A stretch of 64,000 nucleotides of DNA from a virus (IMGVR_UViG_3300034060_000074), one strand, 5' to 3'; counted from the stretch's first letter, positions 5,551 through 23,974 are shown. The notes: generated by a model from the letters alone, not told the origin. Numbers and translations are program-made.

Positions 5551-5942
5551 TATCTTAATTTGTTTTTGTATTCTAATACAGCTAAACGCTGTTTGATCTC
5601 TGCTCTTTCAGTTGCTGCAGCTTCTTTGATATCAGTCATTTTTTGTACGATTTCCATCTTCATATCAGCTCTGCTTTGTGCTGCTGCCGCTCTAATAGCC
5701 TCCATCTCAATAGTAGTTCCCTGTGGAGGAATAGCTTTATTTTCAGTAGTTACTACCACTGCTATCTTATTATTTAAAACAGTTATCTGGTTGTTTAAGG
5801 TACTCACTTGAGTCAATAACCATCCAATAGCTGATACACAAATAGGTAAAAGTGTGAAAACTAACTTCTCTACCAACCCTGACTTACTTTTATCAGCTGC
5901 CAGTTGCTCAGATATCTTTTCATTCCTTTCTTCTTGTGTCAT
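5550..5942 (-). CDS. Single-TM coiled-coil protein
   Basis: LVFTLLPICVSAIGWLLT TM segment; translationally coupled to the endolysin. Confidence 0.6.
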   Translation of the reverse strand: MTQEERNEKISEQLAADKSKSGLVEKLVFTLLPICVSAIGWLLTQVSTLNNQITVLNNKIAVVVTTENKAIPPQGTTIEMEAIRAAAAQSRADMKMEIVQKMTDIKEAAATERAEIKQRLAVLEYKNKLR

Positions 5943-6547
5943 TATATACTACCATTTAAAAGGTTATTGTATTCATTAAAATGTTTTATACGATCTGGTA
6001 GACCAATTGTTCCACCATTAACACGCTTAGTCACTTTGGTTACCACTGCATCTGTAGCCCCCTCGTCAGCAATCTTATGTAATCCATTCTTATGGAAGAA
6101 CCAAGCTGCAGATAAAAGTGGGTACTTTGTAGCTACAAGATCAGGGTTAGCTAGGATATCCTCCTCTACAGTCTTGTCAAAAGCAGCGTAGTTATCCTTA
6201 CCTGTTAATTGTATATAACCACGACCTCTAAACTTATAACCTTCACCAGAAGCCTGAGGACCGTTACCCATACGATTAGCATAGACAACGTTAGCAATCT
6301 TTTCAGGCTTACGTTCGTACTCTTTAGCACTTATAGCTGTAAAGTATTTCTTAAAGATGCTCTGTAAACCAGCAGCACCATAGTTTAAGTTCTCTGTAAC
6401 AGCTTTGAATCCACCTGATTCATGTCCTGTTTGTGCTAGAAAATGAGCTAAACGTAAAGGAGTATTAATCTCAAACTTCTCTACTACACCAGGGATTTGT
6501 GCAATCACTGTGTCAGGAATATTTCCTTTTAACTTTTCTATGTTCAT
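5942..6547 (-). CDS. Endolysin, glycoside hydrolase family 19
   Basis: RLAHFLAQTGHESGGF...ENLNY and FRGRGYIQLTGKDNY signatures; TKRVNGGTIGLPDR C-terminus. Confidence 0.92.
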   Translation of the reverse strand: MNIEKLKGNIPDTVIAQIPGVVEKFEINTPLRLAHFLAQTGHESGGFKAVTENLNYGAAGLQSIFKKYFTAISAKEYERKPEKIANVVYANRMGNGPQASGEGYKFRGRGYIQLTGKDNYAAFDKTVEEDILANPDLVATKYPLLSAAWFFHKNGLHKIADEGATDAVVTKVTKRVNGGTIGLPDRIKHFNEYNNLLNGSI

Positions 6548-7998: not shown

Positions 7999-8367
7999 TT
8001 AGTAGGGCTGATAGGATTTCTCCTCTACAAAGTCAGACCCATACTTAATATTAATTTCTTTTTTAATATATGCTCGCTTGTCATTCAATCTATAAACAGA
8101 TCTAGCTAGGTCAACAAACTCTTCTCCAAAACTACTAGATCTTTCAAAGTCTCTTAGAAGATCTTCCACCTTCCAGAGAAACTGGTTCACCTTAAGAAGT
8201 TCATCAGTCATAGGATCATGTAATATCTCAGGATCTATCACTGTGTTTAGGTAGTTTTTTTCCTTGAAAACATTAACCAATTTGTCTTTGTCCTTTATGT
8301 TCAAAGCTTTGATAGATAATATTGTCCATTTATCTACCACTTCTCCTATAGAAACTTCTATTTGCAT
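7999..8367 (-). CDS. DUF6165-family protein (probable start MQIEVSIGE at 8367)
   Basis: IEVSIGEVVDKWTILSIK...LWKVED..R...F..LARSVY..ND.RA.IK.EIN..YGS..VEEKSY pattern. Confidence 0.75.
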   Translation of the reverse strand: MQIEVSIGEVVDKWTILSIKALNIKDKDKLVNVFKEKNYLNTVIDPEILHDPMTDELLKVNQFLWKVEDLLRDFERSSSFGEEFVDLARSVYRLNDKRAYIKKEINIKYGSDFVEEKSYQPY

Positions 8368-8377
8368 ACTAAAAATG

Positions 8378-8408
8378 TTTGATATTCCACGCAAATATAC
8401 TAATTTTG
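8378..8408. promoter_or_regulatory. Back-to-back divergent Bacteroidota-type promoters
   Basis: Plus strand TTTG (8378-8381), 19 nt, TAATTTTG (8401-8408); minus strand TATATTTG (8392-8399), inside the 58-nt gap between divergent genes. Confidence 0.65.
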
Positions 8409-8425
8409 TTGTAAATACAATTAAT

Positions 8426-11400
8426 ATGCCCAACAGTTATACATATTTTAAGGAAGAAGTCAAGGAATGGTTCAAGAATAATGTTCCTGCTAGTACAAGA
8501 ATATTAGATATAGGCCCTGGACAAGGTACATATGGTAAGCTTTTAAGTGATATTGGGTATAGAGCTATAGATGCTGTTGAGGTGTGGGAACCCTACATTA
8601 GTGAGTATAAACTATGGGAGTATTATGGGATTATATACAACAATGATATACGTGAGTTTGATTGGTCTGAGTATGATTTTATCATCCTAGGTGATGTGTT
8701 AGAACATTTAACAGCTGAAGAAGGACAAAAGCTTATCAATGATATTGCCATGGCTAGGAAGCAATGTTTGGTTGCTATTCCATATATGATGGAGCAAGAT
8801 GGTGAGCAGTATGGTAATACATATGAAACCCACCTGCAGGCAGACCTTACAAAGGAAGTGATGGCAGAGCGTTACCCTACACTAGACTTGCTCTATGCAA
8901 ATGAGCATTATGGGTATTATGTAAGTAAGAAGGTGGTAGACAAAGCATTTGTACTCTATGCCACAGAAGCCTATTATGATATTGTGACAGCCTGTGTACA
9001 TTCTCTTACAACATTTAGTCAGTATCCTGTATTTGTTTACATGCTTAACTCTGACAAAAAGGTACCCAGAGCTACAACCATTAAATGGAACTGTGATATA
9101 GATCCAATAGAATACAACACCAAAGACCAGTTCTACATCAACAGGACAGATGATAGAATATATAACATCCTCATACAGCGTCCACTGATTGTTATAGACT
9201 GTCTAAAGTATGCTGACAGTGTGATGTATGTAGACAGTGACAGTGTTGCTACACCTTTTGTAGACAAAGTGTTTAATTATCCTGTCTCTGAGTATCCCCT
9301 GTTTACATCTAGTATCTATGACCAAATGTTTCTGAATGGAAAAGGAGATCTTGAGAAACATATATGTGAACTTCTAGCTATAAAGAGAGGCAGGTATATA
9401 CAAACAGGATACTTCCTAGCTAGTGTGAGCTGTCTGAAGTTCTTAAAGGAGTGGGCTAACATGTGTACTCATCCTACAATACTAAAAGACTTTAAGAAAT
9501 ACGCACCCTTCCATGAAGAAACTGTAGCCAATGCTGTACGCTGGAAGTATGAAATAGATCAGTCATTACCACTCATCTATACCAATGCTAGCTTGGATGT
9601 ACTAGAGAACATAGATAAATATGAGTTTGGTAAAGAACATTGGGAATGGTTTAAGCTACCTGATAGTAAGCATGAGTTGTTCTTTTACCATGGAGAGAAA
9701 CGACCAGATGTAATGTATAAGATGATTGATAGATTGAAAGGTAATAAAAGAGTGTTGTTCCTAGCTCCTCATCTATCTACAGGTGGTATGCCTGCGTTCC
9801 TATTAAAGAGAATACAAGAGATAAGCTACTGCACAGACATCTATGTAGTTGAGTACCAATGCCATAGCTTAGACTTTGTTGTACAGCGTAATGCAATCAA
9901 AGAGATTGTAGGATCTAACTTCACTACACTGTATGAGAACAAGATGGAACTGTTTGATATTATTGATAGCTGGAAGCCAGACATCATTCATCTGGATGAG
10001 CCTGCTGAGAGATATGACAGAGAGATGATTACTAAGTTGTATGATACAAACAGATCATACAAGATTGTAGAGACATTCCATGATGTAGCATTTAAGCCTG
10101 AAGAAAAAATCTTTCAGTCAGAAGCATATGCATTCTGTACACCATATCACCTCAATAAGTTTACCAACCTACAAGGTTATACAAAGGTGATTGAGTTTCC
10201 TATAGAGGATAAAAGGCCAGATGCTGTAGGTAAAATAATAGCTAAGAATATACTAGAGTTTGCTCCATTCAAGACCAGTGTTGTAAACATAGGACTATGG
10301 ACCCCAGGCAAGAATCAAGCAGAGGGAATAGAGATAGCTAAGAAGTACCCTCATATGGATTTCCATTTTGTAGGTAATCAAGCTGGTAACTTCAAAGACT
10401 ACTGGGAACCATTAATGAAAGACTTACCACCTAATGTAAAGATATGGGGAGAAAGAAATGATACATGGAAGTTTATGAGAGCTGCAGATATATTCATGTT
10501 CAACAGCACATGGGAATGCAACCCTCTTGTACTTAGAGAAGCAATCAGCTATGGTCTTCCTATCATAGCTAGAAACCTTCCTCAATATGAAGACATGTTT
10601 ACTAAGTATTTACAACCAATAGATACAGACTTAAACACTATACAAACTAACTATGAAGTACCTACAGAGAATACATTCAGACAAGACTACATAGACTTCT
10701 ACAACCACGTAGACTCTATTTCTTTACAGCCACAAGATGTAACCATCACACAACACTATGTTGTTAATCCATTCCTTGAGATAACAGGTGTGAGTGATAG
10801 TAATTTCAAGGTGGAATTCTATGATGAGCAGGGAGCGTGTCACTACAGTAGTGTGATCAAAACCAACCAGTGGGTAAAGCTAGATAGAAGCTATTACACT
10901 AAATGGAGAAGTAAGATATGGCAGGATGATGTTCTTATACATGACTACACATTAGACTATACAGACAAGACTGTCTTCATCTACTTTGATAGTGAGAGTC
11001 TTGGAGATACAATTGCATGGATACCATACTGTTTAGAGTTTAAGAAGAAGCACAACTGTCATGTTGTTGTTAGCACATATAAAAACTTCTTGTTTGAGAA
11101 AGCATATCCAGAGCTTGAGTTTGTTGCACCTGGAACACCTGTCAATGCTTATGGAGAATACATAATAGGTTGGAGATATAATAAAGACCAAGAGCCTGAG
11201 TTGTGTAACACTATACCTCTACAGAAAGCAGCTGCTAATATACTTGGACTACCATATAGAGAAATAAGACCTAGGTTTGCTTATACACCTGTGGAGTTTG
11301 AAGACAAGAGTAAGTATGTAACTATTGCTACAAACAGTACAACAGGATGTAAGTTTTGGACTAGAGAAGAGTGGCAGGAGTTAATTAACTATCTAGTGGA

Positions 11401-11803
11401 GAAAGGATACAAGGTGTATAATGTATCTAAAGAAAGAAATCCATTTGACAGATGTGTACAGATAGAAGATACATCAATGGATAACACCATTAATATGATT
11501 TGGAACAGTAAGTTCTTTATAGGACTATCTAGTGGATTAAGCTGGTTAGCTTGGATGATGGGTAAGCAAGTGGTGATGATATCTAACTTCACCAAAGCAG
11601 ACCATGAGTTTCAATCCAACTGTATAAGAATTACAGATGAAACTGTATGTCATGGCTGTTGGAACAATAAAAACTTCAAGTTTGATAGAGGAGACTGGAA
11701 CTGGTGCCCAATCTGGAAGGGTTATGACAGACAGTTTGAATGCCATAAAACCATCACAGCAGGTAAAGTTATAGCTTCCCTTCAGTCTTTAATTGCTCTC
11801 TAA
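8426..11803 (+). CDS. Four-domain enzyme: SAM methyltransferase + GT-A (DxD) + GT4-like + TibC/BAHT-like protein heptosyltransferase domain
   Basis: ILDIGPGQGTYG...ILGDVLEH (class I MTase); YVDSDS (DxD); FLAPHLSTGGMP...KNQ...ADIFMFNSTWECNPLVLREAISYGLPII (GT4); ESLGDTIAW...FIGLSSGLSWLAW...CHGCWN-C-C (TibC-like). Start moved to the MPNSY Met at 8426, just after the promoter. Confidence 0.8.
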   Translation: MPNSYTYFKEEVKEWFKNNVPASTRILDIGPGQGTYGKLLSDIGYRAIDAVEVWEPYISEYKLWEYYGIIYNNDIREFDWSEYDFIILGDVLEHLTAEEGQKLINDIAMARKQCLVAIPYMMEQDGEQYGNTYETHLQADLTKEVMAERYPTLDLLYANEHYGYYVSKKVVDKAFVLYATEAYYDIVTACVHSLTTFSQYPVFVYMLNSDKKVPRATTIKWNCDIDPIEYNTKDQFYINRTDDRIYNILIQRPLIVIDCLKYADSVMYVDSDSVATPFVDKVFNYPVSEYPLFTSSIYDQMFLNGKGDLEKHICELLAIKRGRYIQTGYFLASVSCLKFLKEWANMCTHPTILKDFKKYAPFHEETVANAVRWKYEIDQSLPLIYTNASLDVLENIDKYEFGKEHWEWFKLPDSKHELFFYHGEKRPDVMYKMIDRLKGNKRVLFLAPHLSTGGMPAFLLKRIQEISYCTDIYVVEYQCHSLDFVVQRNAIKEIVGSNFTTLYENKMELFDIIDSWKPDIIHLDEPAERYDREMITKLYDTNRSYKIVETFHDVAFKPEEKIFQSEAYAFCTPYHLNKFTNLQGYTKVIEFPIEDKRPDAVGKIIAKNILEFAPFKTSVVNIGLWTPGKNQAEGIEIAKKYPHMDFHFVGNQAGNFKDYWEPLMKDLPPNVKIWGERNDTWKFMRAADIFMFNSTWECNPLVLREAISYGLPIIARNLPQYEDMFTKYLQPIDTDLNTIQTNYEVPTENTFRQDYIDFYNHVDSISLQPQDVTITQHYVVNPFLEITGVSDSNFKVEFYDEQGACHYSSVIKTNQWVKLDRSYYTKWRSKIWQDDVLIHDYTLDYTDKTVFIYFDSESLGDTIAWIPYCLEFKKKHNCHVVVSTYKNFLFEKAYPELEFVAPGTPVNAYGEYIIGWRYNKDQEPELCNTIPLQKAAANILGLPYREIRPRFAYTPVEFEDKSKYVTIATNSTTGCKFWTREEWQELINYLVEKGYKVYNVSKERNPFDRCVQIEDTSMDNTINMIWNSKFFIGLSSGLSWLAWMMGKQVVMISNFTKADHEFQSNCIRITDETVCHGCWNNKNFKFDRGDWNWCPIWKGYDRQFECHKTITAGKVIASLQSLIAL

Positions 11804-12155
11804 TCTTTGTAGCAGAGATGTCACTTATTTCTTGAGGAGGAACATGTTCAACAACATCATATCCTACACCTCTACCAAAGTTAATAGACTCAATGTCAGG
11901 AATGATTATTAGTCTCACTTTGTTTTCTTCAATAAGATCTATTAGTTCTTCTGATAGATTCATCATTATTTGATATGCTGACCAAGGGTTCTTTTCATCT
12001 TGCTTAACATCTCGTACACATAGCAAGACCTTCTTTCCCTGGTTTAACTGTTGATCAATTAACCATCTGTGACCTTCGTGCCATGGTTGCCATCTTCCAA
12101 TGAACATAGCGTAGCCATCTGTCTTTCTATTTCCTTCAGCTAAAATATTCTGCAT
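11769..12155 (-). CDS. HxGH nucleotidyltransferase (cytidylyltransferase/NadM-like fold); possible minimal sulfate adenylyltransferase
   Basis: FIGRWQPWHEGH...NPWS...ISATKIRE motifs; coupled to the APS kinase gene. Confidence 0.7.
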   Translation of the reverse strand: MQNILAEGNRKTDGYAMFIGRWQPWHEGHRWLIDQQLNQGKKVLLCVRDVKQDEKNPWSAYQIMMNLSEELIDLIEENKVRLIIIPDIESINFGRGVGYDVVEHVPPQEISDISATKIREQLKTEGKL

Positions 12156-12574
12156 ATACGTTTGATTTGATCCACACTCTTCTCTATAGAAGTGTTAGAT
12201 GTATTAATAATTGAATCTATATTATCTCTATTTGGAACTTCAAAGTCTTCCACTTTAAATTGATCTCTACCTCTATCTTCTTCATATATAAGATAGATCC
12301 ACTTAACATCTCTAGTTAGACTGCTTAGATACTGTCTAGCTTCTTCATAAGGATACACTAGTGATAGAACAACATTGTGTCCTTTGTAGCTTAAATACTT
12401 TGCTATGTCACTAGCTCTGTTTAAGTTTTTAATCCTACCTTCTCTACTGTAGTCTTTGTTATTAAACATGTCTCTTAAGTCATCACCATCTATGTGGTGG
12501 AATCCCTCTGCCATAAACTTTTTAGCTAGGGTTGTCTTGCCTGATGCAGGCTGTCCAAAAATAACTATTATCAT
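12140..12574 (-). CDS. cysC: Adenylylsulfate (APS) kinase-like P-loop kinase
   Basis: GQPASGKTT P-loop, DGDDLR, DYSREGRIKNL and a late EVP motif typical of APS kinases; short (144 aa). Confidence 0.7.
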   Translation of the reverse strand: MIIVIFGQPASGKTTLAKKFMAEGFHHIDGDDLRDMFNNKDYSREGRIKNLNRASDIAKYLSYKGHNVVLSLVYPYEEARQYLSSLTRDVKWIYLIYEEDRGRDQFKVEDFEVPNRDNIDSIINTSNTSIEKSVDQIKRICRIF

Positions 12575-13389
12575 TTTGTATATCTAAATTGTTGAAAAAA
12601 CCATTGATAATTATCAAAGATCCAATTACTAACATCCTTACCTAATAAAGCTTTTGCTTTAGAGGGTACAGGTTCTAATCTAGTACGAATAGTATGGTCA
12701 CCAAAGCTTCCATACACTTCATCATCTTCTTTAGTTACTTGCTCTATGTTGTCCCAATCATGTTGGTAATATGGAATGCCTAAGTATTGATATATCCTTG
12801 TCATCTCTGTATCAGGATATAAACACAAGTCTTCAAATCTAACAAATAACATGTTCTTATCTGTACCCATTCTAAATATCTCTTGTAATCTTTCAATAGC
12901 AAGACCAACAGGTTGACTCTGTGCCCATATGTCTATACGTTTTGGAACTGTTGTTCCTTGCATCTGTGCCCAATTGAGAATAGCATTAGCCTTATCAGGA
13001 TTCTTTCTATAGTTGTTTTCCATAGAAGCAAAGATATCTCTAAGGTCCCTGACCATGCATATAATCTTTGGCTCTGGATGAATGAAGTTTAGGAAGTCAT
13101 AATGTATTCCCCATCCTCTACTCTTATCTACAACATATTTCTTATCTGTAATAGCATTGTAATAAGCAATCATTCCTTCTTTACAGAATGCTTGGAATGC
13201 AGCTTTCATCACCTGTGAGTCTTGAGCTTGAAACTCTGGACTGTCTGTGTAATTACCTCTAGCAGCAAACACCAATTCAAGAACACCACTAGTTGGTGTA
13301 GCATATACGTCTGGGTTTTGTGCTAATATGTTTTGTAACAATGTTGAACCTGCTCTTGGTAATGAGCTTTGATAGAATATATTTTCCAT
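12571..13389 (-). CDS. PAPS-dependent sulfotransferase
   Basis: SLPRAGSTLL (5'-PSB loop), RDLRDIFAS (3'-PB motif), VRFEDL. Confidence 0.88.
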   Translation of the reverse strand: MENIFYQSSLPRAGSTLLQNILAQNPDVYATPTSGVLELVFAARGNYTDSPEFQAQDSQVMKAAFQAFCKEGMIAYYNAITDKKYVVDKSRGWGIHYDFLNFIHPEPKIICMVRDLRDIFASMENNYRKNPDKANAILNWAQMQGTTVPKRIDIWAQSQPVGLAIERLQEIFRMGTDKNMLFVRFEDLCLYPDTEMTRIYQYLGIPYYQHDWDNIEQVTKEDDEVYGSFGDHTIRTRLEPVPSKAKALLGKDVSNWIFDNYQWFFQQFRYTK

Positions 13390-13390
13390 A

Positions 13391-14266
13391 TTAAGATTTT
13401 AAAGATGCAATAACTTGATCTACATTAAATATTTCTGTTTCATTGTTATATGGAAACTCTAATAGGTTTCCTGATATATCAAACTTCTGCAAGTATGCAT
13501 TACGTAACTCAGGCTTCTTGGTGAATGGATTACATACAATGTTATCATGTACATGATGTCCAAACACTTTAGGTTTGTTACACACCCAAAGGACTGTAGA
13601 AGGTTTATTCATAGCAGCAGCTGCGTGATGGCCAAAGCTATCCATAAACAATCTCTTACTACTAAGTTCTATAAGAACAGCTAGTGCTCTGAAGTTGTCT
13701 GTAACAGGAGTGGTGAAGTCATAACCAATCTGATCTTCTCTTCTTATGTGTACAATGTTATATTCATTTTTAAACTCCTCAATAACAGGACCTATAACAC
13801 ATGTAGGGATGTCTCTAGCCCATGAGTATTTCAACTCTTGTCCTGGAGCACCACCATTTGTTTGTAATAATAAAATAGGTTTGTCAGATGTAAACTTCTG
13901 ACCAAAGAATTTACGTTCTCTATCTGTAAGATAGAGCTTAGGTATGCTACTCTCAGGAGCGTCAATGCCAAACATCTTTGTCCATGTGAGACTCAAATGT
14001 TCATTCTGCATAAGATGTTCTGTCTGTATATATGGATCATGTCCAAACACTTTAAACTCTTTATCCTCTATAAAATCTTCATAGAAGTATTGTGTCATAC
14101 CAAAAGAAAATGAGCGATACACAAAGGGGTTGTTTATAAACACCTCTGGGTAACCGCTCATTACAATTAATTGACTATCAGGATATTGTGTATGAATTGC
14201 TTCACATACAGATGTGGCAAGTATACACTTACCTATACCACCATTGATTTGAAAAATGATATTCAT
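13391..14266 (-). CDS. GT9-like (heptosyltransferase-fold) glycosyltransferase
   Basis: GGIGKCILATSVCEAI N-terminus; LFMDSFGHHAAAAMNKPSTVLW matches the GT9 D(S/T)...H.A.A..KP...LW motif. Confidence 0.7.
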   Translation of the reverse strand: MNIIFQINGGIGKCILATSVCEAIHTQYPDSQLIVMSGYPEVFINNPFVYRSFSFGMTQYFYEDFIEDKEFKVFGHDPYIQTEHLMQNEHLSLTWTKMFGIDAPESSIPKLYLTDRERKFFGQKFTSDKPILLLQTNGGAPGQELKYSWARDIPTCVIGPVIEEFKNEYNIVHIRREDQIGYDFTTPVTDNFRALAVLIELSSKRLFMDSFGHHAAAAMNKPSTVLWVCNKPKVFGHHVHDNIVCNPFTKKPELRNAYLQKFDISGNLLEFPYNNETEIFNVDQVIASLKS

Positions 14267-14282
14267 AATTTAGCTTTATAAG

Positions 14283-14314
14283 CAAAGGTATACATTGCTT
14301 ATAATAAAACCAAA
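14283..14314 (-). promoter_or_regulatory. Bacteroidota RpoD-type promoter heading the GT9-sulfotransferase-kinase operon
   Basis: TTTG (14311-14314), 20 nt, TACCTTTG (14283-14290). Confidence 0.7.
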
Positions 14315-14324
14315 TTATTTAATA

Positions 14325-14702
14325 TTATTTTGCTGTAGTGGTAGTAGTGGTAGTTGTAGCAGGAGCACTAGTAGTTGTACTAGTTGTAGTTGTTGAATCT
14401 ACAAACACTGCTGCAGCTAATGCGTCTAATAAAGCTTGATCAAGATTAGCAGCTTCCACTCTAAATGATTGTGCATCTGGGCTATTAGGTAACCAGTCAC
14501 TAAACAAAGTGTTGAAGTTATTAATAGCATGATATGTCTTTGGACCTGTGTAGCCTACTGGCTTACCTGCCCATACGTTGTCTATCACTGCTTGTGCTTC
14601 TGCTTGTACATCTGCAATAGCTACCTGTACGTTTTGTGTGTCAGAAATTACCTGCACTGTACCAAAACCAAAAATGTGGATTGTATTCCATGCGTTTGCC
14701 AT
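14325..14702 (-). CDS. Hypothetical protein with a C-terminal poly-Thr tail
   Basis: Ends DSTTTTSTTTSAPATTTTTTTTAK; directly downstream of the giant fibre. Confidence 0.75.
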   Translation of the reverse strand: MANAWNTIHIFGFGTVQVISDTQNVQVAIADVQAEAQAVIDNVWAGKPVGYTGPKTYHAINNFNTLFSDWLPNSPDAQSFRVEAANLDQALLDALAAAVFVDSTTTTSTTTSAPATTTTTTTTAK

Positions 14703-14722
14703 AGTTGTTATTTTTTGTAAAG

Positions 14723-17700
14723 TTAAATTAAATTATTGTTTTTAAGTATATTTTCTATTATTTTTATTCTATCTTTTAAGCTATCATTCTCAGCTTTAAG
14801 TTCTTTGAAAGCGTTTACATAAGAAGCATATATGGCATCCTTCTCAAATTGTAGGATTGGACTACCACCTTGTTCAACTATCACCTCAAGACCATTCTCA
14901 TCCACTCTAGATAGTGGGTTTGTTTCCACTACACAAGACATTACTTGTTGTACTTCCTGTGCTATGAAACCATATTTCTTATGACATGATGTATCACCAT
15001 TCCAGCAATAGCTTACAGGCCTCAACTTAACAATATCATCTAGACCAAAGCAAGTATCTTGAATAGTATTCTTTCTTCTACAATCAGAAATACCACCACC
15101 CCATTGACACAAGTTATTTACAAATGTGTAGTTATTAGCTACACCTGGAATACAAGAACCAATAATGTGAGAGTTAGTTGTGCTATTACTACAGTTATAT
15201 GTACCACCTAAAATTGTTGACCAAGGAGAAGAAACATTTATTAAATTGCAACATCCACCCCCCATAAACGAACAATCAGCATATGTAAGATTACCATATC
15301 CGCCAACTACAACAGAGCGACAACCATTTGCTATATTATATAAACCACCACCTATTGTTGATTCATATCCTGATGCTGTGTTTCCTACACCACCCCCTAC
15401 AAAAGAAACATATCCTGATGCAGTATTTGAAGTGCCTCCTGTTATAGCACTTCTTGTATTTGAAGCAACGTTGTTTGTTCCGCCTGCAATTACTGACATA
15501 GCACCACCTATGGTATTGTTACTACCTCCTCCACCTATTGTAGAACAGTTAGCACTTGCAAAGTTAGAACTACCACCACCTACTGTTGAATTTATTCCTA
15601 ATGCACAGTTACTTGTACCTCCACCAACAAATGAACGACCACCTGTTGCTCTATTTACATAGCCACCTGAAACTGTTGAATAAGCTCCTGATGAACTATT
15701 ATTATAACCTCCTCCAACAAAAGCTCTTGGGCTTGTGGCACAGTTATCGCTACCACCTGCTGTTGTAGACCAAACACCTGATGAAATGTTTGCTTGACCA
15801 CCTCCAACAAATGAACAAGCTCCTGTAGCTGTGTTTGAAATACCACCTCCTACTGTTGAGCGATAAGCTGATGCTGTATTAGAACTACCTCCTCCAACAA
15901 CACTTGAATAACTACTTGATATATTAGAATTGCCTCCTCCAATAAAAGCAAAATAACAAGAAGCTGTATTATTACTACCGCCTACTACAGAACTTCTATA
16001 GAAATTGGCAGTATTTGTGAAACCTCCTCCTACAAATGACCAACCTCCTGATGCAATGTTATATCTTCCACTAAATGTTCCTGAACAACCTCCTGATGCA
16101 GTGTTTTGTAATGCACCACCTACAACAGAATGTCCTGATGATGCTATATTTAATTGTCCACCACTAACAGTAGCGTGTCCTGCTGATGCTATATTAGTAT
16201 TACCGCCTCCAATAGTTGAACAAGCCCCTGAAGCTGTATTTACAGCACCTCCTGCAATAGCAGATGTATCTCCTGAAGAAGTGTTTGAATTACCACTACC
16301 AATAAAACTTCTATATCCTGATGCTGTATGGTTACGACCACCAACTATTGTTGCCCAAGTAGTAGAAGCTGTATTTAAATAACCACCAACAACTATTGCA
16401 TATTCACCCCCACACGCTTTGTTACCATAACCACTACCAACAAATGAGAACGTAGTTGCAGCTAAATTACTTTGACCTCCTGCTACCACTGAAGCAACTC
16501 CTGATGATGTATTACCTTGACCTGAAGCATATGCAAACCCACCATTTGCAAGGTTGCCACACCCTCCTGATATTATGGAACAAGCTCCTGAAGCTATGTT
16601 ATATAAACCACTTCCTATAAATGAGTTACAACCACTTGCTGTACCTGAATCACCACCTGCAATTGCTGCGTATATTGCACTAGCTGTGTTACCATTACCA
16701 CTTCCAATAAATGCTCTAGCTCCAGAGGCAGTATTTACATTACCACCTGCTACTGTTGCGTGAGCTCCTGTTGCTCTATTCTGAAATCCTCCTCCAATAA
16801 AACTATACGCACCTGCTGCACTAAATGTTGGTGCCACTGTAAATGCACAAGCAGCAAGACTCCAAGTACCTCCTGATGTATTATTACCTACACCTCCACC
16901 TACTACAGCACCATAAGCTAAACAACCTGATGTTGCATTATATACATTATTGCAGTTACCACCACCAATAAATCCACCAAAAGCTGCAGCATAGTTTCTG
17001 CATCCTCCGCTAATAGCAGAACTTAAACCTAATGCTTGGTTTCCATAACCGCCGCTTACTGTAGAACCACCATTACCTGCTGCTTCATTACTTAATCCAC
17101 CTCCTATAGATGAATACGCACCTGATGCAGTATTTACTCTACCGCCTGCAATAGCAGCATTACTACAAGATGCAGTGTTGCAACAACCACCGCCTATTGC
17201 TGAATGTGCTCCTGAAGCTGTATTATTTCTTCCTCCTGCTACAGTAGAAAACCCTCCTGAAGCAGAATTATAATAACCGCCTCCAACAGAAGAGCAACCA
17301 CCACCTGCTGAAATACCATATCCACCACTAACTGTTGCATAAGCAGTTGTAGCTGAGTTTAGTCTACCACCACCAACAGTTGTCCAATATGAAGATGATG
17401 TATTACCACACCCACCACCTAAAAATGAACAAGCTCCTGAAGCTGTGTTACCTTGACCACCTGCTACTACTGATTTAGCTCCACTTGCTATATTAGAAAG
17501 TCCTGAACCAACAAATGAATTAGTTCCACTTGCTGTGTTTGTATCACCTCCTGCTATGGTACCATAACCTGCACTTACAGTGTTATTTGCACCACCACCA
17601 ATTGTTCCATGTATTACTGCTGAATTGTTTCTTCCACCTGATACTGTTGAATAAGTACCTGATGCAGTATTATTACATCCTCCTCCTGAAAATGAATAAT

Positions 17701-20700
17701 CTCCTGTAGCTTTTACAACTCTACCACCAACTACAGTGCTATGACTTCCTGTTGCACAGTTAAAAAGACCTCCTCCTACAAATGCTCTTGTATTTACTGC
17801 TTGGTTCAATTCTCCTCCTACCACTACAGTATAATTATTTGATGAAGTGTTAGAACATCCTCCTCCTACAAATGCACAATTACCATTAGCAGTGTTTGCT
17901 CTTCCTCCTGATACTGTTGAATGGGCTGCTGAAGCAAGATTGGCTTGACCTCCTCCTACTGTAGAAAAACCACCACTTGATGTATTACTAAATCCACCTG
18001 CTATTGTTGAATAGCACGCAGATACTGTATTTAAATAACCACCTGCTATTGTAGCCAAGTAACCACTAGCTGAGTTTCCTCTACCACCACCTACTGTCGA
18101 TTGTCCATTAGAAGATGTGTTACTAGCTCCCCCACCTACTACTGAACAGTTTCCTGATGCAGTATTACCAAATCCTCCTCCTATAAAACCACGATACCCT
18201 GATGCTGTATTACTAGCTCCACCTGCAACTATAGAATCTGCACCATTTGATACATTGCTTCTACCTCCTCCTATAAATGACCAAGTACCTGATGCTGTGT
18301 TAAGACAACCACCAACTATTGTAGCAAAAGTATTAGTAGCCCTATTCTGAAATCCTCCTCCTATAAAACTAAAATCACCTGCCGCACATATTGTAGGTGC
18401 AACATTAAATCTTTGACCATTCCAAGTACCACCTGTTGTATTACCACCTACACCACCTGCTATTGTTACAGCACAAACTTTTGCACCACAAATATAGTTT
18501 GAACTACCCCCACCAATAGCTGCAAACCCATTACCAAATGCAGTAGATACACTACAAATAAAATTTTGATAGCCTCCTGATATTGTAGAATAACTTGCAG
18601 AGTTAGTATTAAAATACCCACTCAATATAGATGCATAAGGTTTAGGGGCACTATTACCAAATCCACCACCAATTATCGATAAGTCACCTGATGCTATATT
18701 GCATCCGCCTCCTAAAACAACAGAACAAGCATTTGAGGCTGTGTTATTTGCACCACCTCCAACAATTGAATGTCCACCTGATGCTGTGTTTGAGTTTCCA
18801 CTGCCAACAAAAGAACGACTTCCTGAAGATATATTTCCTAAACCACCTCCTATTGTTCCTTCATATCCACTTGATGTATTTGCTCTACCACTTCCTACAA
18901 AAGAATATCCTGATGAAGCTGTATTACCACAACCTCCTGCTACTGCTGCTCTATAAGATGACGCTGTATTATTTTGACCTCCTCCTATAAATGAATGTGC
19001 ACCACTAGCATTATTGCTTTGACCTCCACCAATAGCAGCACAAGCTCCTGAAGAACTATTTAATTTACCACTACCTATAAAGGAATGACTTCCTAATGAA
19101 ACGTTATTACACCCACTAGCAATACCTGACATATCTCCTGTAGCACAGTTTTGCAATCCTGCACCAACAAAAGCTCTTGCATTTGTTGCAAGGTTTAATT
19201 CACCTCCTGCTACAACTGAATATATACCACTAGCTGTATTTGCACATCCTCCACTTACAGTAGAACAAGCCCCTGAAGATGTGTTAGCTCTACCTCCTGC
19301 TACACTTGCAAAAGCACCTGAAGCAACGTTTTGCTGTCCACCTGATACAATTGCTCTTCCTCCTGTGGCTGTATTTAAAATACCTCCTCCTACAGTTGAA
19401 AAATCTCCTCCTGCTGTATTTCCATATCCACCACTGACTGTTGTATTACAAGATGATGCATTATTACACGCACCACCACCCACTGTAGAACTTGAATATG
19501 CGTTAGCACAATTTTTATAACCACCTGATACAGTTGAATAACTTCCTGTTGCTCTATTCTGAAATCCTCCTCCTATAAAAGAGTATTGACCTGCAACACA
19601 TTTAGTTGGAGCAACTGTAAAATCACAAGCTGCTAAAGACCAAGTACCCCCTGTAGTGTTGTTTCCAATACCACCTGCTATGGTAGCACCAAGAACTAAA
19701 CAAGATGATGTAGGGCTGCAAATTATATTACATAATCCTGCTCCAACAAATGAATAAATACCACCTGCATAGTTTACACCACCACCAACTATTGTTGATT
19801 CTATGGCTGATGCTACGTTTGCATATCCTCCACCTATAAACGAATAACATCCTGATACAGTATGACCTCTACCGCCACCAAGGAATGACATACAGTTGCT
19901 CACTGTATTAGAAAATCCACCTACCGCTGAAGAATATCTTGAACTTACAGTATTTCCATATCCACTTCCTATAAATGAACTAGTTGCTGTAACTGTGTTC
20001 CTATCTCCACCTGCTATTGTTGCAAAATTTCCACAAGCTACGTTCGTACATCCACCTCCTACAGCAGCATATACTGCTGAAGCTATGTTACTTTGACCTC
20101 CTCCTACTGTAGAACAAGCTCCTGAAGCTGAGTTTAGATAACCTCCTGCAACCACAGAGTGAGAACCTGATGCAGTGTTTGCCTGACCGCCTAATATAGC
20201 TGCTCTATATCCACTTGCAGTGTTAGCCCATCCTCCTGCTACAACAGTTTGATAATAACTTGCTGTGTTAGCACATCCATTTCCAACAAATGAACCAACT
20301 CCTGAAGCTGTGTTACCTTTTCCACCAACCACTGCTGACTCTCCTGACGTTGCAGCATTAGCACATCCTCCACCTACAAAACTACAAGCCCCTGATGCAG
20401 TGTTTGATATACCACCTGCAACTGTTGAGTTTGCTCCTGAAGCACAGTTACTTGTTCCTCCTCCTATAGTGGAACGATTACCTGATGCTCTATTTATGTA
20501 ACCACCTGATATTGTAGAATATGTATTTGAAGCACTATTATTATAACCTCCACCTACAAACGCTCTTGGACTTATAGCACAGTTATCACTACCTCCTACA
20601 ACTGCAGACCAAGCACCTGTTGCAGTATTTGCTTGACCACCTCCAACTGTTGAACAGTTACCTGATGCAGTGTTACCTTGACCACCTCCAATAAATGACA

Positions 20701-23700
20701 TATTTGCTGAAGCTGAATTACCACTACCCCCTCCAATAAAAGAATTTGAATTTTGTGTTGTATTAGAAAGACCTCCTGCTATAGCAGAATATGTACCCAC
20801 TGAAGCATTAGCTGAACCACTTAAAGAACCACTATATGCTCCTGAAGAAGTATTTGTTACACCACATCTTACTGAAGAACATAATCCTGCTCCAAGCACA
20901 ATAACAGCACTAGAACCAACATTTATACCTGAGCTACCAGAGCTACCACTTGTACCTGACGTACCACTGGTGCCAGAAGTTCCACTTGTTCCTGAGCTAC
21001 CACTAGTTCCTGTTGTACCACTAGACCCACTAGAGCCTGTTGTACCAGAGGTTCCTGTTGTACCAGACGTACCACTTATAGCTGATGTACCACTAGAGCC
21101 TGAAGTACCTGTGGTACCTGACGTACCACCTGTACCATTGGTTCCACTTGTACCACTTGTACCTGTAGTTCCAGCTGTACCTGAGGTGCCATTAGATCCA
21201 TTAAGACCTGATGTTCCTGAGGTACCTGTAGAACCTGAGGTTCCTGATGTGCCATTGACACCACTACTGCCTGAGGAACCAGATGTTCCTGAAGATCCAG
21301 AAGTACCTGTGGTTCCAGAGGTTCCACTTGTACCACCTGTTCCATTAGTGCCAGACGTGCCACTAGAACCTGCTGAGCCACTAGAGCCAGAAGTTCCTGT
21401 TGTGCCACTTGTTCCACTTGTTGCAGACGTACCACTAGATCCACTTGTACCTGTAGTACCACTAGTTCCAGAAGAGCCAGTCGTACCACTAGTACCACTT
21501 GTTCCTCCTGTTCCATTAGTTCCACTTGTACCTGATGTTCCTGTGGTACCAGATGTACCATCTATTCCTGAAGACCCTGAAGATCCTGATGTTCCTGTTG
21601 TTCCTGAAGTACCTGAGGTTCCTCCAGATCCATTGGTGCCTGACGTACCACTAGTTCCTGTAGTTCCACTTGTTCCTGTTGTACCGCTACTACCACTGCT
21701 GCCAGAAGTGCCAGAAGTACCTGAAGAACCATCACCTCCTGATGCACCATCAAGATTTACTATCCATGATGTATAAGTACCACTACCTACTGTTCTAGTA
21801 GGTGCTGCGAATGATAAAGATCCTGTTGCTGGGTTATATGAAATTACCTCACACTCTTGGAAGTTGTTTGCATCATAAACCACAATGATTGATTGGGCCA
21901 CTGTATAAGCCAATCCTAATCCTACAATGATTGTCCCAGCATTGCCTAATGTAAAAGTAGAAGATGATGTTGTTGCATATCTATCTCCTTGTAATCCTGA
22001 GGTACCACTCGTACCACTTGTCCCAGTTGTTCCTGATGTACCAGCTGTACCACTAGAGCCTGCACTACCACTAGAACCACTTGTTCCTGTTGTTCCACTT
22101 GTTCCAGAAGTTCCTGTAGTTCCAGAAGTTCCTGTAGTACCACTAGATCCTGAGGTGCCTGTAGTGCCACTTGTTCCACTAGTACCTCCAGTACCATCTG
22201 TTGCAGATGTTCCTGAACTTCCTGATGTTCCAGAAGTACCACTAGTACCTGTAGTGCCTGATGTACCAGCACTACCACTTGTTCCACTAGTTCCACTTGT
22301 TCCTGTTGTACCTGAAGAGCCAGAAGACCCTGTTGTTCCTGAGGTGCCAGAAGTACCTCCTGTACCATCAGTGCCACTTGTTCCACTGGTTCCTGCAGTA
22401 CCAGATGTTCCAGATGTTCCAGAAGTTCCACTTGTTCCTCCTGTACCATCAGTACCTGAAGTTCCACTTGTACCACTTGAACCTGCTGTTCCACTAGATC
22501 CTGCTGTTCCACTAGTACCACTAGTACCAGTTGTACCAGAGGTTCCCCCTGTTCCATCTGTACCACTAGTTCCTGACGTTCCTGTTGTACCTGCTGTACC
22601 ACTTGATCCTGAGGTTCCTGAACTGCCACTAGTACCTGTAGTACCTGAAGTGCCACTGGTACCTGCTGTACCTGATGTACCTGTAGTACCAGCAGTTCCT
22701 GAAGAACCTGATGTACCAGAGCTACCTGAAGTTCCTGTGGTTCCACTTGTACCAGATGTGCCATCTGTACCTGAAGTACCTGATGTAGCACTTGTACCTG
22801 ATGAACCTGAGCTTCCAGAAGTACCTGTTGTACCACTTGTGCCAGTTGTACCACTAGTCCCTGATGTACCATCAGTACCACTTGTTGCAGAAGTACCATC
22901 TGTTCCACTTGTACCAGACGTACCAGTAGTTCCAGAAGTGCCAGAGGTTCCTGACGTACCATCAATACCTGAAGTACCAGAGGTACCACCTGTAGCTGTG
23001 AAGTTTGCAATAGTACCATCACCTCGTATATATTGAGCTGCTGATCCTGTTGCTACAACGTTTATAGTTCCTGAAGAAGTTATAGGGGGTGTTGTAATGC
23101 TGAATGCTGGAGGCATGGCAAGTTGTACACTTGTCACTGTTCCTACAGACCAACTTCTATTTGCTGATAAGTTTTGTGTTAAACCATTGATGCTCAACGT
23201 TCTAGTTGTAGGCACTGGTGTATATCCTAATGCAGATATAATATCTCCTTGTGTAACAGGAGTGGCAGACGTCACAAGACCTTTGCCATTCACAGCCACC
23301 TTTAAAAAGGTGTTGCTTCCATAGACATTAGGATTGACTGTCTGTAATGTAAGAGTTGTAGGAGAACCTGTCATACCAGTTCCTGTCACGTCACCAACAA
23401 TGATGATGACACCAGAAGGAACAGCAATATTTATAGGAGTGATGTTAGTCACTAATCCTTTTGTGTTCACTGTTACTACTGGAACCTGTGTAGTGGAACC
23501 ATATGTTCCTGGGTTAGGATTAACACTAGCCAATGTAAGGACAGCAGAGCCTGGGCCACTAGCTGTACCATCTCCTGTTAGTGCTGTGATATAAGGACCT
23601 GATGGTTGGTATGATGTATTATCTAAGCTACCATCCCCTTTGACAAAGTCAGAAGAGGTTCCACCTGTTGTTATTAATGCTGCAGACTCAATTGAATCTG

Positions 23701-23974
23701 TAATCTTGAATGTATAACCATTACTAAGAATGACTGTATTCTGGGTTAAGCTACCGCCTAGCTTCACTGGTTGACCAGGAGCTGACTGTATAATTCCATT
23801 TTGGAATATATACCCAAGACCAGCATCTCCAAACTTTGCGTCTATTTTTTGTAGAGCTGTCTGAAGATTATCATTAGTGTTGATGCCAGTGTATATTAAA
23901 TTCTCACCTTCATAGAATACGCAGGTGGCATTTAGTATGACTGGACATGGTTCTGCTGAACAAGATACATCCAT
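14723..23974 (-). CDS. Giant tail fibre/adhesin (3083 aa) with GTS collagen-like region, GGxxN beta-repeat region and C-terminal intramolecular chaperone (peptidase S74-like)
   Basis: N-terminal attachment motif; (G-T/S-T/S)n runs; ~14-aa ASGxxSxVxGGxxN repeats over ~1900 aa; ISDCRRKNTIQ...LDDIVKLRPVSYCW followed by a terminal coiled coil. Confidence 0.85.
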   Translation of the reverse strand: MDVSCSAEPCPVILNATCVFYEGENLIYTGINTNDNLQTALQKIDAKFGDAGLGYIFQNGIIQSAPGQPVKLGGSLTQNTVILSNGYTFKITDSIESAALITTGGTSSDFVKGDGSLDNTSYQPSGPYITALTGDGTASGPGSAVLTLASVNPNPGTYGSTTQVPVVTVNTKGLVTNITPINIAVPSGVIIIVGDVTGTGMTGSPTTLTLQTVNPNVYGSNTFLKVAVNGKGLVTSATPVTQGDIISALGYTPVPTTRTLSINGLTQNLSANRSWSVGTVTSVQLAMPPAFSITTPPITSSGTINVVATGSAAQYIRGDGTIANFTATGGTSGTSGIDGTSGTSGTSGTTGTSGTSGTDGTSATSGTDGTSGTSGTTGTSGTTGTSGSSGSSGTSATSGTSGTDGTSGTSGTTGTSGSSGTSGSSGTAGTTGTSGTAGTSGTSGTTGTSGSSGTSGSSGTAGTTGTSGTSGTDGTGGTSGTTGTSGTSGTAGSSGTAGSSGTSGTSGTDGTGGTSGTSGTSGTSGTAGTSGTSGTDGTGGTSGTSGTTGSSGSSGTTGTSGTSGTSGSAGTSGTTGTSGTSGTSGSSGTSATDGTGGTSGTSGTTGTSGSSGTTGTSGTTGTSGTSGTTGTSGSSGSAGSSGTAGTSGTTGTSGTSGTSGLQGDRYATTSSSTFTLGNAGTIIVGLGLAYTVAQSIIVVYDANNFQECEVISYNPATGSLSFAAPTRTVGSGTYTSWIVNLDGASGGDGSSGTSGTSGSSGSSGTTGTSGTTGTSGTSGTNGSGGTSGTSGTTGTSGSSGSSGIDGTSGTTGTSGTSGTNGTGGTSGTSGTTGSSGTSGTTGTSGSSGTSATSGTSGTTGTSGSSGSAGSSGTSGTNGTGGTSGTSGTTGTSGSSGTSGSSGSSGVNGTSGTSGSTGTSGTSGLNGSNGTSGTAGTTGTSGTSGTNGTGGTSGTTGTSGSSGTSAISGTSGTTGTSGTTGSSGSSGTTGTSGSSGTSGTSGTSGTSGTSGSSGSSGINVGSSAVIVLGAGLCSSVRCGVTNTSSGAYSGSLSGSANASVGTYSAIAGGLSNTTQNSNSFIGGGSGNSASANMSFIGGGQGNTASGNCSTVGGGQANTATGAWSAVVGGSDNCAISPRAFVGGGYNNSASNTYSTISGGYINRASGNRSTIGGGTSNCASGANSTVAGGISNTASGACSFVGGGCANAATSGESAVVGGKGNTASGVGSFVGNGCANTASYYQTVVAGGWANTASGYRAAILGGQANTASGSHSVVAGGYLNSASGACSTVGGGQSNIASAVYAAVGGGCTNVACGNFATIAGGDRNTVTATSSFIGSGYGNTVSSRYSSAVGGFSNTVSNCMSFLGGGRGHTVSGCYSFIGGGYANVASAIESTIVGGGVNYAGGIYSFVGAGLCNIICSPTSSCLVLGATIAGGIGNNTTGGTWSLAACDFTVAPTKCVAGQYSFIGGGFQNRATGSYSTVSGGYKNCANAYSSSTVGGGACNNASSCNTTVSGGYGNTAGGDFSTVGGGILNTATGGRAIVSGGQQNVASGAFASVAGGRANTSSGACSTVSGGCANTASGIYSVVAGGELNLATNARAFVGAGLQNCATGDMSGIASGCNNVSLGSHSFIGSGKLNSSSGACAAIGGGQSNNASGAHSFIGGGQNNTASSYRAAVAGGCGNTASSGYSFVGSGRANTSSGYEGTIGGGLGNISSGSRSFVGSGNSNTASGGHSIVGGGANNTASNACSVVLGGGCNIASGDLSIIGGGFGNSAPKPYASILSGYFNTNSASYSTISGGYQNFICSVSTAFGNGFAAIGGGSSNYICGAKVCAVTIAGGVGGNTTGGTWNGQRFNVAPTICAAGDFSFIGGGFQNRATNTFATIVGGCLNTASGTWSFIGGGRSNVSNGADSIVAGGASNTASGYRGFIGGGFGNTASGNCSVVGGGASNTSSNGQSTVGGGRGNSASGYLATIAGGYLNTVSACYSTIAGGFSNTSSGGFSTVGGGQANLASAAHSTVSGGRANTANGNCAFVGGGCSNTSSNNYTVVVGGELNQAVNTRAFVGGGLFNCATGSHSTVVGGRVVKATGDYSFSGGGCNNTASGTYSTVSGGRNNSAVIHGTIGGGANNTVSAGYGTIAGGDTNTASGTNSFVGSGLSNIASGAKSVVAGGQGNTASGACSFLGGGCGNTSSSYWTTVGGGRLNSATTAYATVSGGYGISAGGGCSSVGGGYYNSASGGFSTVAGGRNNTASGAHSAIGGGCCNTASCSNAAIAGGRVNTASGAYSSIGGGLSNEAAGNGGSTVSGGYGNQALGLSSAISGGCRNYAAAFGGFIGGGNCNNVYNATSGCLAYGAVVGGGVGNNTSGGTWSLAACAFTVAPTFSAAGAYSFIGGGFQNRATGAHATVAGGNVNTASGARAFIGSGNGNTASAIYAAIAGGDSGTASGCNSFIGSGLYNIASGACSIISGGCGNLANGGFAYASGQGNTSSGVASVVAGGQSNLAATTFSFVGSGYGNKACGGEYAIVVGGYLNTASTTWATIVGGRNHTASGYRSFIGSGNSNTSSGDTSAIAGGAVNTASGACSTIGGGNTNIASAGHATVSGGQLNIASSGHSVVGGALQNTASGGCSGTFSGRYNIASGGWSFVGGGFTNTANFYRSSVVGGSNNTASCYFAFIGGGNSNISSSYSSVVGGGSSNTASAYRSTVGGGISNTATGACSFVGGGQANISSGVWSTTAGGSDNCATSPRAFVGGGYNNSSSGAYSTVSGGYVNRATGGRSFVGGGTSNCALGINSTVGGGSSNFASANCSTIGGGGSNNTIGGAMSVIAGGTNNVASNTRSAITGGTSNTASGYVSFVGGGVGNTASGYESTIGGGLYNIANGCRSVVVGGYGNLTYADCSFMGGGCCNLINVSSPWSTILGGTYNCSNSTTNSHIIGSCIPGVANNYTFVNNLCQWGGGISDCRRKNTIQDTCFGLDDIVKLRPVSYCWNGDTSCHKKYGFIAQEVQQVMSCVVETNPLSRVDENGLEVIVEQGGSPILQFEKDAIYASYVNAFKELKAENDSLKDRIKIIENILKNNNLI
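15330..20850 (-). repeat. Protein-level ~14-residue GGxxN repeat array (beta-solenoid, YadA/Hep-Hag-like)
   Basis: Seen directly in translation; more than 100 units estimated from length; DNA copies are diverged. Boundaries approximate. Confidence 0.85.
20930..22995 (-). repeat. Gly-Thr-Ser triplet arrays (two blocks, ~20930-21730 and ~22000-22995)
   Basis: GTSGTSGTTGTSGSS... with Gly every third residue and almost no Pro; produces Pro/Val shadow ORFs on the plus strand. Confidence 0.9.

Follow-up and report, generated by a model that had tools for sequence, protein, structure and literature searches.

To our knowledge, only two types of sulfate-activating enzymes are known, Sat and CysDN, and a search of the open-access literature turned up no description of a small or novel ATP sulfurylase. 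Among the described systems closest to the locus presented here, one example is the synthases of 3'-phosphoadenosine 5'-phosphosulfate (PAPS), which are Sat-CysC fusions (human PAPSS1/2, 1x6v; Aquifex aeolicus, 2gks). Another example is the NodPQ/NodH modules, in which a dedicated PAPS supply, with a GTPase-coupled sulfurylase, CysD/CysN, is clustered with a carbohydrate-type sulfotransferase. A third is presented by Allochromatium vinosum, in which sat immediately precedes aprMBA and is transcribed together with these genes (PMC3779200). A fourth is the nicotinamide mononucleotide (NMN) adenylyltransferases (NMNAT) of the NadM type (TIGR01527; 1f9a, 1ej2, 2qjo, 2qjt). The subject of this analysis is a cassette of three genes in an uncultured marine phage (IMGVR_UViG_3300034060_000074), encoding a sulfotransferase (ST), a kinase (KIN), and a small nucleotidyltransferase (NT, or mini-NT), the last of which is probably a stand-alone ATP sulfurylase. 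The window, by which we mean the whole stretch of DNA analysed, comprises 64 kb of the 67.6-kb viral record, which is about 58% complete.

The cassette resembles the PAPS synthases in the two steps proposed for it, and also in the coupling of a nucleotidyltransferase of the HIGH superfamily to a protein with the fold of adenosine 5'-phosphosulfate (APS) kinase, the two being fused in both orders among the relatives of NT, while the model of KIN matches the structures of these very enzymes. Unlike the Sat of the PAPS synthases (~390 aa, with a catalytic domain of ~220 aa), NT is a protein of 128 aa, without PF01747, the PUA-like domain, the QxRN loop, or the GxxKxxD loop, and of NadM-type descent, and, unlike the kinases of these synthases, KIN possesses no lid. 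The likeness to the NodPQ/NodH modules lies in the clustering of a dedicated PAPS supply with a sulfotransferase of the carbohydrate type, the best NCBIfam match of ST being the nodulation/carbohydrate sulfotransferase NoeE (42 bits, under the cut-off); unlike those modules, the cassette is phage-borne, positioned beside virion fibre genes, and neither CysD nor CysN is present with it. The three genes are as follows:

12571-13389, minus strand, ST: PAPS-type sulfotransferase of 272 aa (Pfam, PHROG, motifs)
12140-12574, minus strand, KIN: lid-less APS-kinase-like P-loop kinase of 144 aa (Pfam, fold, alignment)
11769-12155, minus strand, NT (mini-NT): HxGH (HIGH-superfamily) nucleotidyltransferase of 128 aa, candidate sulfate adenylyltransferase (Pfam, fold, context)

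A preliminary description, made from the sequence of the window, listed three abutting or overlapping genes here, and all three are indeed present as open reading frames (ORFs). The stop codon of ST overlaps the start codon of KIN in an ATGA, and the overlap between KIN and NT amounts to 16 nt; these junctions fit translational coupling. The genes are real, with homologues of 53-99% identity in 507 IMG/VR stretches and among 7272 database proteins.

The best-supported reading of mini-NT, and one that we consider probable on the basis of comparative genomics, is that of a stand-alone ATP sulfurylase (ATP + sulfate <-> APS + PPi). Judged on sequence, fold, and viral evidence alone, before the contexts in cellular genomes were considered, the same reading appeared unlikely. 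The minimal stand-alone sulfurylase had been put forward in the preliminary description, and it now draws support from the APS-using partners of the family, from the absence of Sat and CysD in the carriers, from the evidence that the protein is not an NMNAT, and from the deletion of a segment typical of NadM.

The cellular contexts come from a scan with a profile of the NT family, one genome per species, which uncovered at least 500 matching loci, of which 80 were kept. The carriers belong to Marinimicrobia, Bacteroidota, Acidobacteriota, Nitrospirota, Patescibacteria, Planctomycetota, Omnitrophota, Alphaproteobacteria (SAR11), and three archaeal groups. An APS-using enzyme adjoins NT, or is fused to it, in 74 of the 80 loci, and the partners are of three unrelated kinds, APS kinase, the dissimilatory APS reductase AprBA, and the assimilatory APS/PAPS reductase CysH. 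The cellular APS kinase gene adjoins NT or is fused to it, as KIN-NT or as NT-KIN, and the triad recurs with sulfotransferases of different families. One example is SAR406, in which a canonical 199-aa CysC (226 bits) is encoded directly upstream of NT, with Sulfotransfer_5 and sugar-nucleotide genes near. Another example is the Bacteroidota, with the order of CysC, NT, a CysQ-like protein, a flippase, and two Sulfotransfer_1 genes. A third is presented by a Pyrinomonadaceae chromosome and a Chitinophagaceae metagenome-assembled genome (MAG), in which the next gene is a weak match to Sulfotransfer_3. The second kind of partner is found in approximately 25 SAR11 loci, in the order of NT, a 264-aa membrane protein (4-5 transmembrane helices), AprB, AprA, a 116-aa protein, and TauE, and the third in two Nitrospiraceae loci, in which genes for sulfite reductase and CysH are followed by NT. 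The only metabolite common to all three kinds of partners is APS. In the ~25 SAR11 loci, the mini-NT upstream of the membrane protein, AprB, and AprA occupies the position of sat in A. vinosum; unlike in A. vinosum, the gene in this position encodes a 126-aa NadM-derived protein and not Sat, and the context is that of NT relatives and not of the window.

The distribution of the alternative enzymes points in the same direction. Among the 36 genomes outside SAR11 that encode NT, 31 encode neither Sat nor CysD (Sat is present in three and CysD in two), and the carriers without either include a single-chromosome 4.5-Mb Pyrinomonadaceae assembly (a MAG), a 4.1-Mb Chitinophagaceae genome, and a 3.7-Mb isolate assembly, Halocatena pleomorpha. 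Co-occurrence had been named as a check in the preliminary description, and the two counts, 74 of 80 loci with APS enzymes and 31 of 36 carriers without Sat and CysD, come out in favour of its proposal. Most SAR11 are reported to lack ATP sulfurylase (PMC10356861). In a sample of 121 SAR11-family genomes, NT is present in 79, AprB in 71, and both in 69, with the two genomes possessing AprB without NT both doing so on small contigs, and with the ten genomes possessing NT without AprB mostly encoding kinase fusions. Sat is found in six of the 121 genomes, and 67 of the 71 AprB-positive ones are without it.

Phylogeny connects these contexts. In the tree, the mini-NT family is split from NadM with a support of 99. 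The AprBA-linked NTs of SAR11 nest among the kinase-linked and kinase-fused copies, the CysH-linked NTs nest inside a CysC-linked Bacteroidota clade, and the phage NTs group with the SAR406 copies. As the NT lineage does not split where the partners change, one conserved activity appears to serve all of them. The NT of the window belongs to a clade of 17 phage sequences, 13 of them with a sulfotransferase nearby. In viruses, for which contexts were counted in the best 80 loci of the 507 IMG/VR stretches encoding NT relatives, an APS-kinase-like gene is positioned directly upstream of NT in 76. As to NMN as a substrate, four archaeal carriers also encode a full-length NadM-type protein (over the family cut-off in two of them), and NadD is encoded in five bacterial carriers as well; since these carriers have a NadM or NadD of their own, the role of housekeeping NMNAT does not fall to mini-NT.

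The sequence of mini-NT displays the motifs GRWQPWHEGH, GRGVGY, and ISATKIR and matches Pfam CTP_transf_like (PF01467) with 23.7 bits (cut-off 21), and the HxGH motif (H26-E-G-H29) is invariant across 137 family sequences. With these features, a Rossmann-like core, and fold matches to NMNAT, phosphopantetheine adenylyltransferase (PPAT), and glycerol-3-phosphate cytidylyltransferase (GCT), the protein belongs to the HIGH nucleotidyltransferase superfamily; the AlphaFold2 (AF2) model, of a mean per-residue confidence (pLDDT) of 80.8, supports this placement, and the substrate is not readable from it. Models of NadM recognize the protein far under their cut-offs (TIGR01527, 29.8 bits versus 181.2; NF002243, 34.4 versus 127), and the labels given to the family in databases are 'cytidylyltransferase-like' or 'NMN adenylyltransferase'. 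When the 137 family members are aligned with three genuine NadM sequences, the two groups are seen to share GRxQPxHxGH, a C-terminal S-x-T-x-x-R, and the fold of the N-terminal two thirds. Unlike NadM, the family displays a deletion of 25 residues (a helix and the YSGNP segment after the DIExN strand), the C-terminal ~35 residues are gone, and the genomic context is that of sulfur genes and not of NAD. Of the residues invariant in the family (R21, H26, H29, R48, R95, and R119), two arginines are specific to it, R48, which replaces the Gly of IGSAQ in NadM, and R95, which is part of the invariant GRGVGY loop (G94, R95, G98, Y99). From NMNAT structures, we take the deleted segment to be the part of NadM that holds nicotinamide, with the aromatic residue that stacks on it. 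As far as the alignment can tell, mini-NT is a NadM-type adenylyltransferase core that has lost its NMN-binding segment and has gained two invariant arginines.

That NT is NadM-like had been recognized in the preliminary description, and NadM is indeed its nearest relative by both sequence and fold. The connection to Sat drawn there, through the HxGH superfamily, amounts to a superfamily-level likeness of the fold only and does not extend to membership in the Sat family, as the Sat catalytic domain (PF01747) has no match anywhere in the viral record, nor do the matches of the family profile to sequences in the Protein Data Bank (PDB) include a Sat. By sequence, NT falls outside the Sat family and, if a sulfurylase, would have arisen independently, from a NadM-like ancestor.

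KIN matches Pfam APS_kinase (PF01583) with 42.9 bits (cut-off 21.1) and NCBIfam TIGR00455 with 39.9 bits, under the cut-off of 138.7, and its sequence matches in the PDB are mostly APS kinases, including the best three. Its AF2 model (pLDDT 95.6) was compared with the PDB by Foldseek, and the top 49 matches are all APS kinases or APS-kinase domains (template modelling (TM) scores up to 0.87). In an alignment including six canonical CysC sequences, the P-loop, DGDxxR, (Y/F)S..(G/D)R..N, and PY...R motifs are aligned, and G7, G12, K13, D31, R34, R47, P75, and R80 are invariant; the shared motifs presumably include the residues that contact APS in APS-kinase structures. KIN is thus predicted, from sequence and model, to be a lid-less kinase of the APS-kinase type, probably specific for APS. 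As to ST, it matches Sulfotransfer_3 (PF13469) with 74.1 bits, Sulfotransfer_1 (PF00685) with 51.2 bits, and phrog_27463 with an E-value of 1.8e-42, and the two PAPS-binding motifs, the 5'-phosphosulfate-binding (5'-PSB) loop SLPRxGSTL and the 3'-phosphate-binding (3'-PB) motif RDxRxxxxS, show a conservation of at least 90% across 21 viral homologues. By its Pfam matches and both motifs, ST is a PAPS-dependent sulfotransferase.

In the mechanism that we propose, mini-NT would move the adenylyl group of ATP to sulfate, producing APS and PPi, and the coupled lid-less KIN would phosphorylate the 3'-OH of APS, producing PAPS and ADP and pulling the unfavourable first step forward, after which ST would transfer the sulfate of PAPS to an acceptor. 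The acceptor is probably a glycan, made by the products of the neighbouring glycosyltransferase genes and carried on the Ser/Thr-rich fibre or on a 125-aa protein encoded next to it; these neighbours suggest a virion-associated glycan, and both its identity and the specificity of mini-NT for sulfate are predictions from context. Next to AprBA in SAR11, the NT family would run in reverse, from APS and PPi to ATP and sulfate. We give somewhat better than even chances to a broader proposal, in which the family represents a third class of ATP sulfurylase, a NadM-derived 'mini-Sat' distinct from Sat and CysDN, which together with the lid-less KIN would make a PAPS synthase of 272 aa in total, smaller than any known, would allow marine phages to sulfate their own glycosylated fibres, and would provide the ATP-sulfurylase step reportedly missing from most SAR11 with AprBA.

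A number of observations weigh against a sulfurylase, and they come from the proteins, from the statistics, and from the phages themselves. With regard to the proteins, the nearest sequences to NT are the NadM-type enzymes (E = 3e-4 with a single sequence, and 4e-9 with the family profile, over the N-terminal two thirds), and the nearest fold to its model is that of NadM NMNAT (Z 8.3), followed by PPAT, GCT, and HldC. The ATP sulfurylases, which appear in the VIA-wide search only, with Z of 5.7-6.3 and 15-21% identity (1v47, 6.3; 1x6v, 6.1; 1j70, 6.0; 4maf, 5.8), are all ranked under NMNAT, at a level indicative of the superfamily only, and a Foldseek search with NT of the PDB and of Swiss-Prot models produced NMNAT and PPAT only, over ~80 residues, and no Sat. 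The SxTxxR motif is common to the whole nucleotidyltransferase superfamily. Sat has a GRD(HAG) loop after a core strand and an SGTxxR motif, and NT displays GRGVGY and ISATKIR; the likeness of GRGVG to GRDHAG is only suggestive, and the model of NT is of low confidence over its C-terminal third (pLDDT 57-64), in which the GRGVG loop lies. In the QxRN(P)xHxxH loop of Sat, the Gln and the Arg bind sulfate (PMC3779200); the corresponding G-R-W-Q-P-W-H-E-G-H of NT is of the NadM form, in which the Pro and the two His align and the Gln and Arg positions of QxRN are absent. As to KIN, the mobile lid of canonical enzymes (KGLYKKAR...FTGI), of ~23 residues, is missing. With regard to the statistics, the association of NT with AprB in SAR11 (Fisher p = 4e-20) is not corrected for phylogeny, many of the cellular genomes are incomplete single-amplified genomes (SAGs) or MAGs, with association statistics that ignore shared ancestry, and canonical Sat is also encoded in the Nitrospiraceae genomes and in a few SAR11 genomes.

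With regard to the phages, which present the main difficulty, a recognizable sulfotransferase is present in only 21 of the 80 viral loci (9 of the 34 with full 6-kb flanks), and the self-contained sulfation pathway of the preliminary description therefore fits the window and its close relatives and does not describe most of the phage loci. Two near-complete phage genomes with the KIN-NT pair have no PF13469 or PF00685 match over the cut-off (one 15-bit match) and no CysH/PAPS reductase (PF01507), so that no use of PAPS was identified in these two phages, which the sulfurylase leaves unexplained. In 28 viral loci (L026-L046, L051-L054, L066-L068, L075, L081-L082), the pair is part of a tight operon of DUF3310, KIN, NT, and a DNA methyltransferase (N6/N4), with no recognizable sulfotransferase; a 376-aa protein, on which an ESM Atlas look-up was uninformative, DUF5856, and a DHH phosphoesterase often follow this operon. 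In five loci (L048-L050, L071, L074), a 112-aa HAD-type phosphatase is encoded between the kinase and NT, and in nine (including L020-L021), a NodU/CmcH-type carbamoyltransferase is encoded beside the pair. The pair also occurs in several other arrangements in phages. Overall, the recurrent viral neighbours recognized by Pfam are DNA methyltransferase, DUF3310, DHH, NUDIX, carbamoyltransferase, small HAD, AAA_5 ATPase, UvdE, and epimerase.

It is from these contexts that the best-surviving alternative arises, in which NT and the kinase activate another small anion or phospho-compound, producing a different 3'-phosphorylated adenylate (compare PPAT and dephospho-CoA kinase) or adenylylating selenate, a phosphonate, or a similar compound, while ST relies on host APS through the phage kinase only. 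Most phage pairs are indeed without a sulfotransferase, sitting with the DNA methyltransferase and DUF3310 or with the carbamoyltransferase and the small HAD phosphatase, and the NT model does not reveal substrate specificity. We nevertheless consider this explanation unlikely, as it does not account for the pairing of NT with AprBA, CysH, and canonical CysC, or for the absence of Sat and CysD in the carriers, and as KIN retains the DGDxxR and YS..GR..N motifs shared with CysC.

A still less probable alternative grants APS as the substrate and places NT on the side of its consumption only, or of the use of phosphate, as an APS:phosphate adenylyltransferase (ADP sulfurylase) or an APS pyrophosphorylase that tunes APS levels in phages without supplying APS. 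The equilibrium of ATP sulfurylase is strongly towards ATP and sulfate, and the AprBA context in SAR11 calls for the removal of APS and not for its synthesis. However, the pairing or fusion with APS kinase, in genomes with no other source of APS, demands net synthesis, and, the reaction being reversible, it is the direction that differs here more than the enzyme.

Salvage of NAD in the manner of NadR, with the P-loop kinase making NMN from nicotinamide riboside, NT making NAD+, and the adjacent ST unrelated to both, has the proximity of the NadM NMNATs in sequence and fold to recommend it. Phages are known to carry NAD salvage genes, NadM-Nudix genes are among the weak phage matches, and a NUDIX gene is located near the pair in some loci. 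The NadM models, however, score the protein at 30-34 bits versus cut-offs of 127-181, the neighbours in cellular genomes are sulfur genes, and we reject this explanation, to which we assign very little probability, on the carriers' own NadM or NadD, on the fold of the kinase, which is that of an APS kinase and not of the ribosylnicotinamide kinase (RNK) type, and on the deletion of the NadM segment presumed to bind nicotinamide. The weakest of the alternatives, activation of a sugar phosphate for the GT9-like neighbours (heptose-1-phosphate to ADP-heptose, for example, as by HldC or RfaE domain II), is suggested by the GT9-type domains that adjoin the cassette and by the similar size and fold of HldC and of small cytidylyltransferases (5x9q, Z 5.8; 3glv, Z 7.0), and is dismissed on gene context, the pair being conserved in most loci without any glycosyltransferase, the partner being a kinase of the APS type and not a sugar kinase, and the cellular contexts featuring APS enzymes.

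Beyond the three genes that would constitute the sulfation pathway, the following features of the window are of relevance:

13391-14266, minus strand: possible GT9-like glycosyltransferase of 291 aa, its gene immediately preceding ST
14325-14702, minus strand: 125-aa protein with a Thr/Ser-rich C-terminal tail (ORF and sequence)
14723-23974, minus strand: 3083-aa fibre-like structural protein, first gene of the co-oriented run (ORF and sequence)
8264-11803, plus strand: 1179-aa multidomain enzyme with methyltransferase, glycosyltransferase (GT), GT1/GT4, and GT9-like regions (Pfam)
7999-8433, minus strand: DUF6165 gene, beside the gene for the 1179-aa enzyme

By ORF calling, the genes for the 3083-aa, 125-aa, and 291-aa proteins, ST, KIN, and NT form a co-oriented run on the minus strand, in which the 291-aa gene ends one base before the start of ST; judging by the spacing of the genes alone, the run may be co-transcribed, and a scan for promoters and terminators produced results at chance level. 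Co-transcription with a GT9-like gene was part of the preliminary description, and of this the tight spacing stands, while the GT9 label comes down to a faint lead from the ESM Atlas. There, 66 of the 100 nearest named clusters of the 291-aa protein fall into one set, with PF01075 in a minority of members (15% in the listed cluster), a result that hints at most at a GT9-like protein. No Pfam family was matched by this protein at E <= 0.01, no sequence in the PDB was matched, and BLASTP gave no significant similarity between it and the GT9-like C-terminal region of the 1179-aa protein. Its homologue is found alongside NT in 18 of the 80 viral loci, in all but one of which ST is also present.

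The plus-strand gene for the 1179-aa protein (Methyltransf_23, Glycos_transf_1, and Glyco_transf_9 in Pfam) converges on NT, overlapping its 3' end, and homologues of its domains are found in 14 of the 80 viral loci, mostly those of the closest relatives of NT, to which homologues of the DUF6165 gene and of the 1179-aa gene are mostly confined. Gly-Thr/Ser triplet repeats take up several hundred residues of the 3083-aa protein, which also contains long repeat regions rich in Gly, Ser, Asn, and Ala and is a possible substrate of the modification genes. The 125-aa protein, with no match in Pfam or PHROG, ends in a run of ~20 Thr/Ser and has homologues in the same position in viral loci L003, L004, and L023; it is likewise a possible target, of O-glycosylation or of sulfation.

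Relatives of the pair are also found in cultured phages. In blastn comparisons with these, the cassette retrieved nothing, and in tblastn comparisons the only matches were fused kinase-NT genes and NadM-Nudix genes. The fused genes (phrog_10255), of Sano-like siphophages and of DLP6, are located away from any sulfotransferase:

5620-6357, Xylella phage Sano (NC_042344): fused kinase-NT, phrog_10255
5593-6324, Stenotrophomonas phage DLP6: fused kinase-NT, phrog_10255

In these phages the fused gene, annotated as 'kinase' or 'adenylylsulfate kinase', sits among early or DNA-metabolism genes, and in Sano a gene annotated as cysteine dioxygenase is present ~3 kb upstream.

Some of the cellular loci possess further features. 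In the SAR11 run (L117, L125, L137, and ~22 more; ~9950-15100), genes for a Cys/Met pyridoxal phosphate (PLP) enzyme, a major facilitator superfamily (MFS) transporter, and a TenA-like protein precede NT, the 264-aa membrane protein is AprM-like, and TauE is a sulfite exporter; at one SAR11 locus (L147), the aprMBA genes are missing, and NT abuts TauE. In the Pyrinomonadaceae locus (L102, 7912-9123), a protein with a phage tail collar domain and a DUF6916 protein are encoded directly upstream of the CysC, NT, and sulfotransferase-like genes, and this cassette may be located in or beside a tail-like or prophage element. Only one cellular locus, in a Flavobacteriaceae MAG (L091, 8737-11434), combines homologues of ST (43%), KIN, NT, and the 291-aa protein (44%); this stretch may be a prophage, or else a contig of phage origin that was binned into the MAG, and could provide a hint as to host range.

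If mini-NT is an ATP sulfurylase, then a third type of sulfate-activating enzyme, of only 112-135 aa, would alter the way in which sulfur metabolism is deduced from genomes, and would explain the APS kinases encoded without a sulfurylase in the genomes of many phyla. It would also fill the acknowledged Sat gap (PMC10356861) beside the AprBA of SAR11, which is the most abundant heterotroph of the sea. Thousands of phage genes currently labelled 'cytidylyltransferase-like' (7272 homologues) would become auxiliary genes of sulfur metabolism, and the phage described here would possess its own complete pathway from sulfate to a sulfated product, encoded among fibre and glycosylation genes, making sulfation of the virion surface possible.

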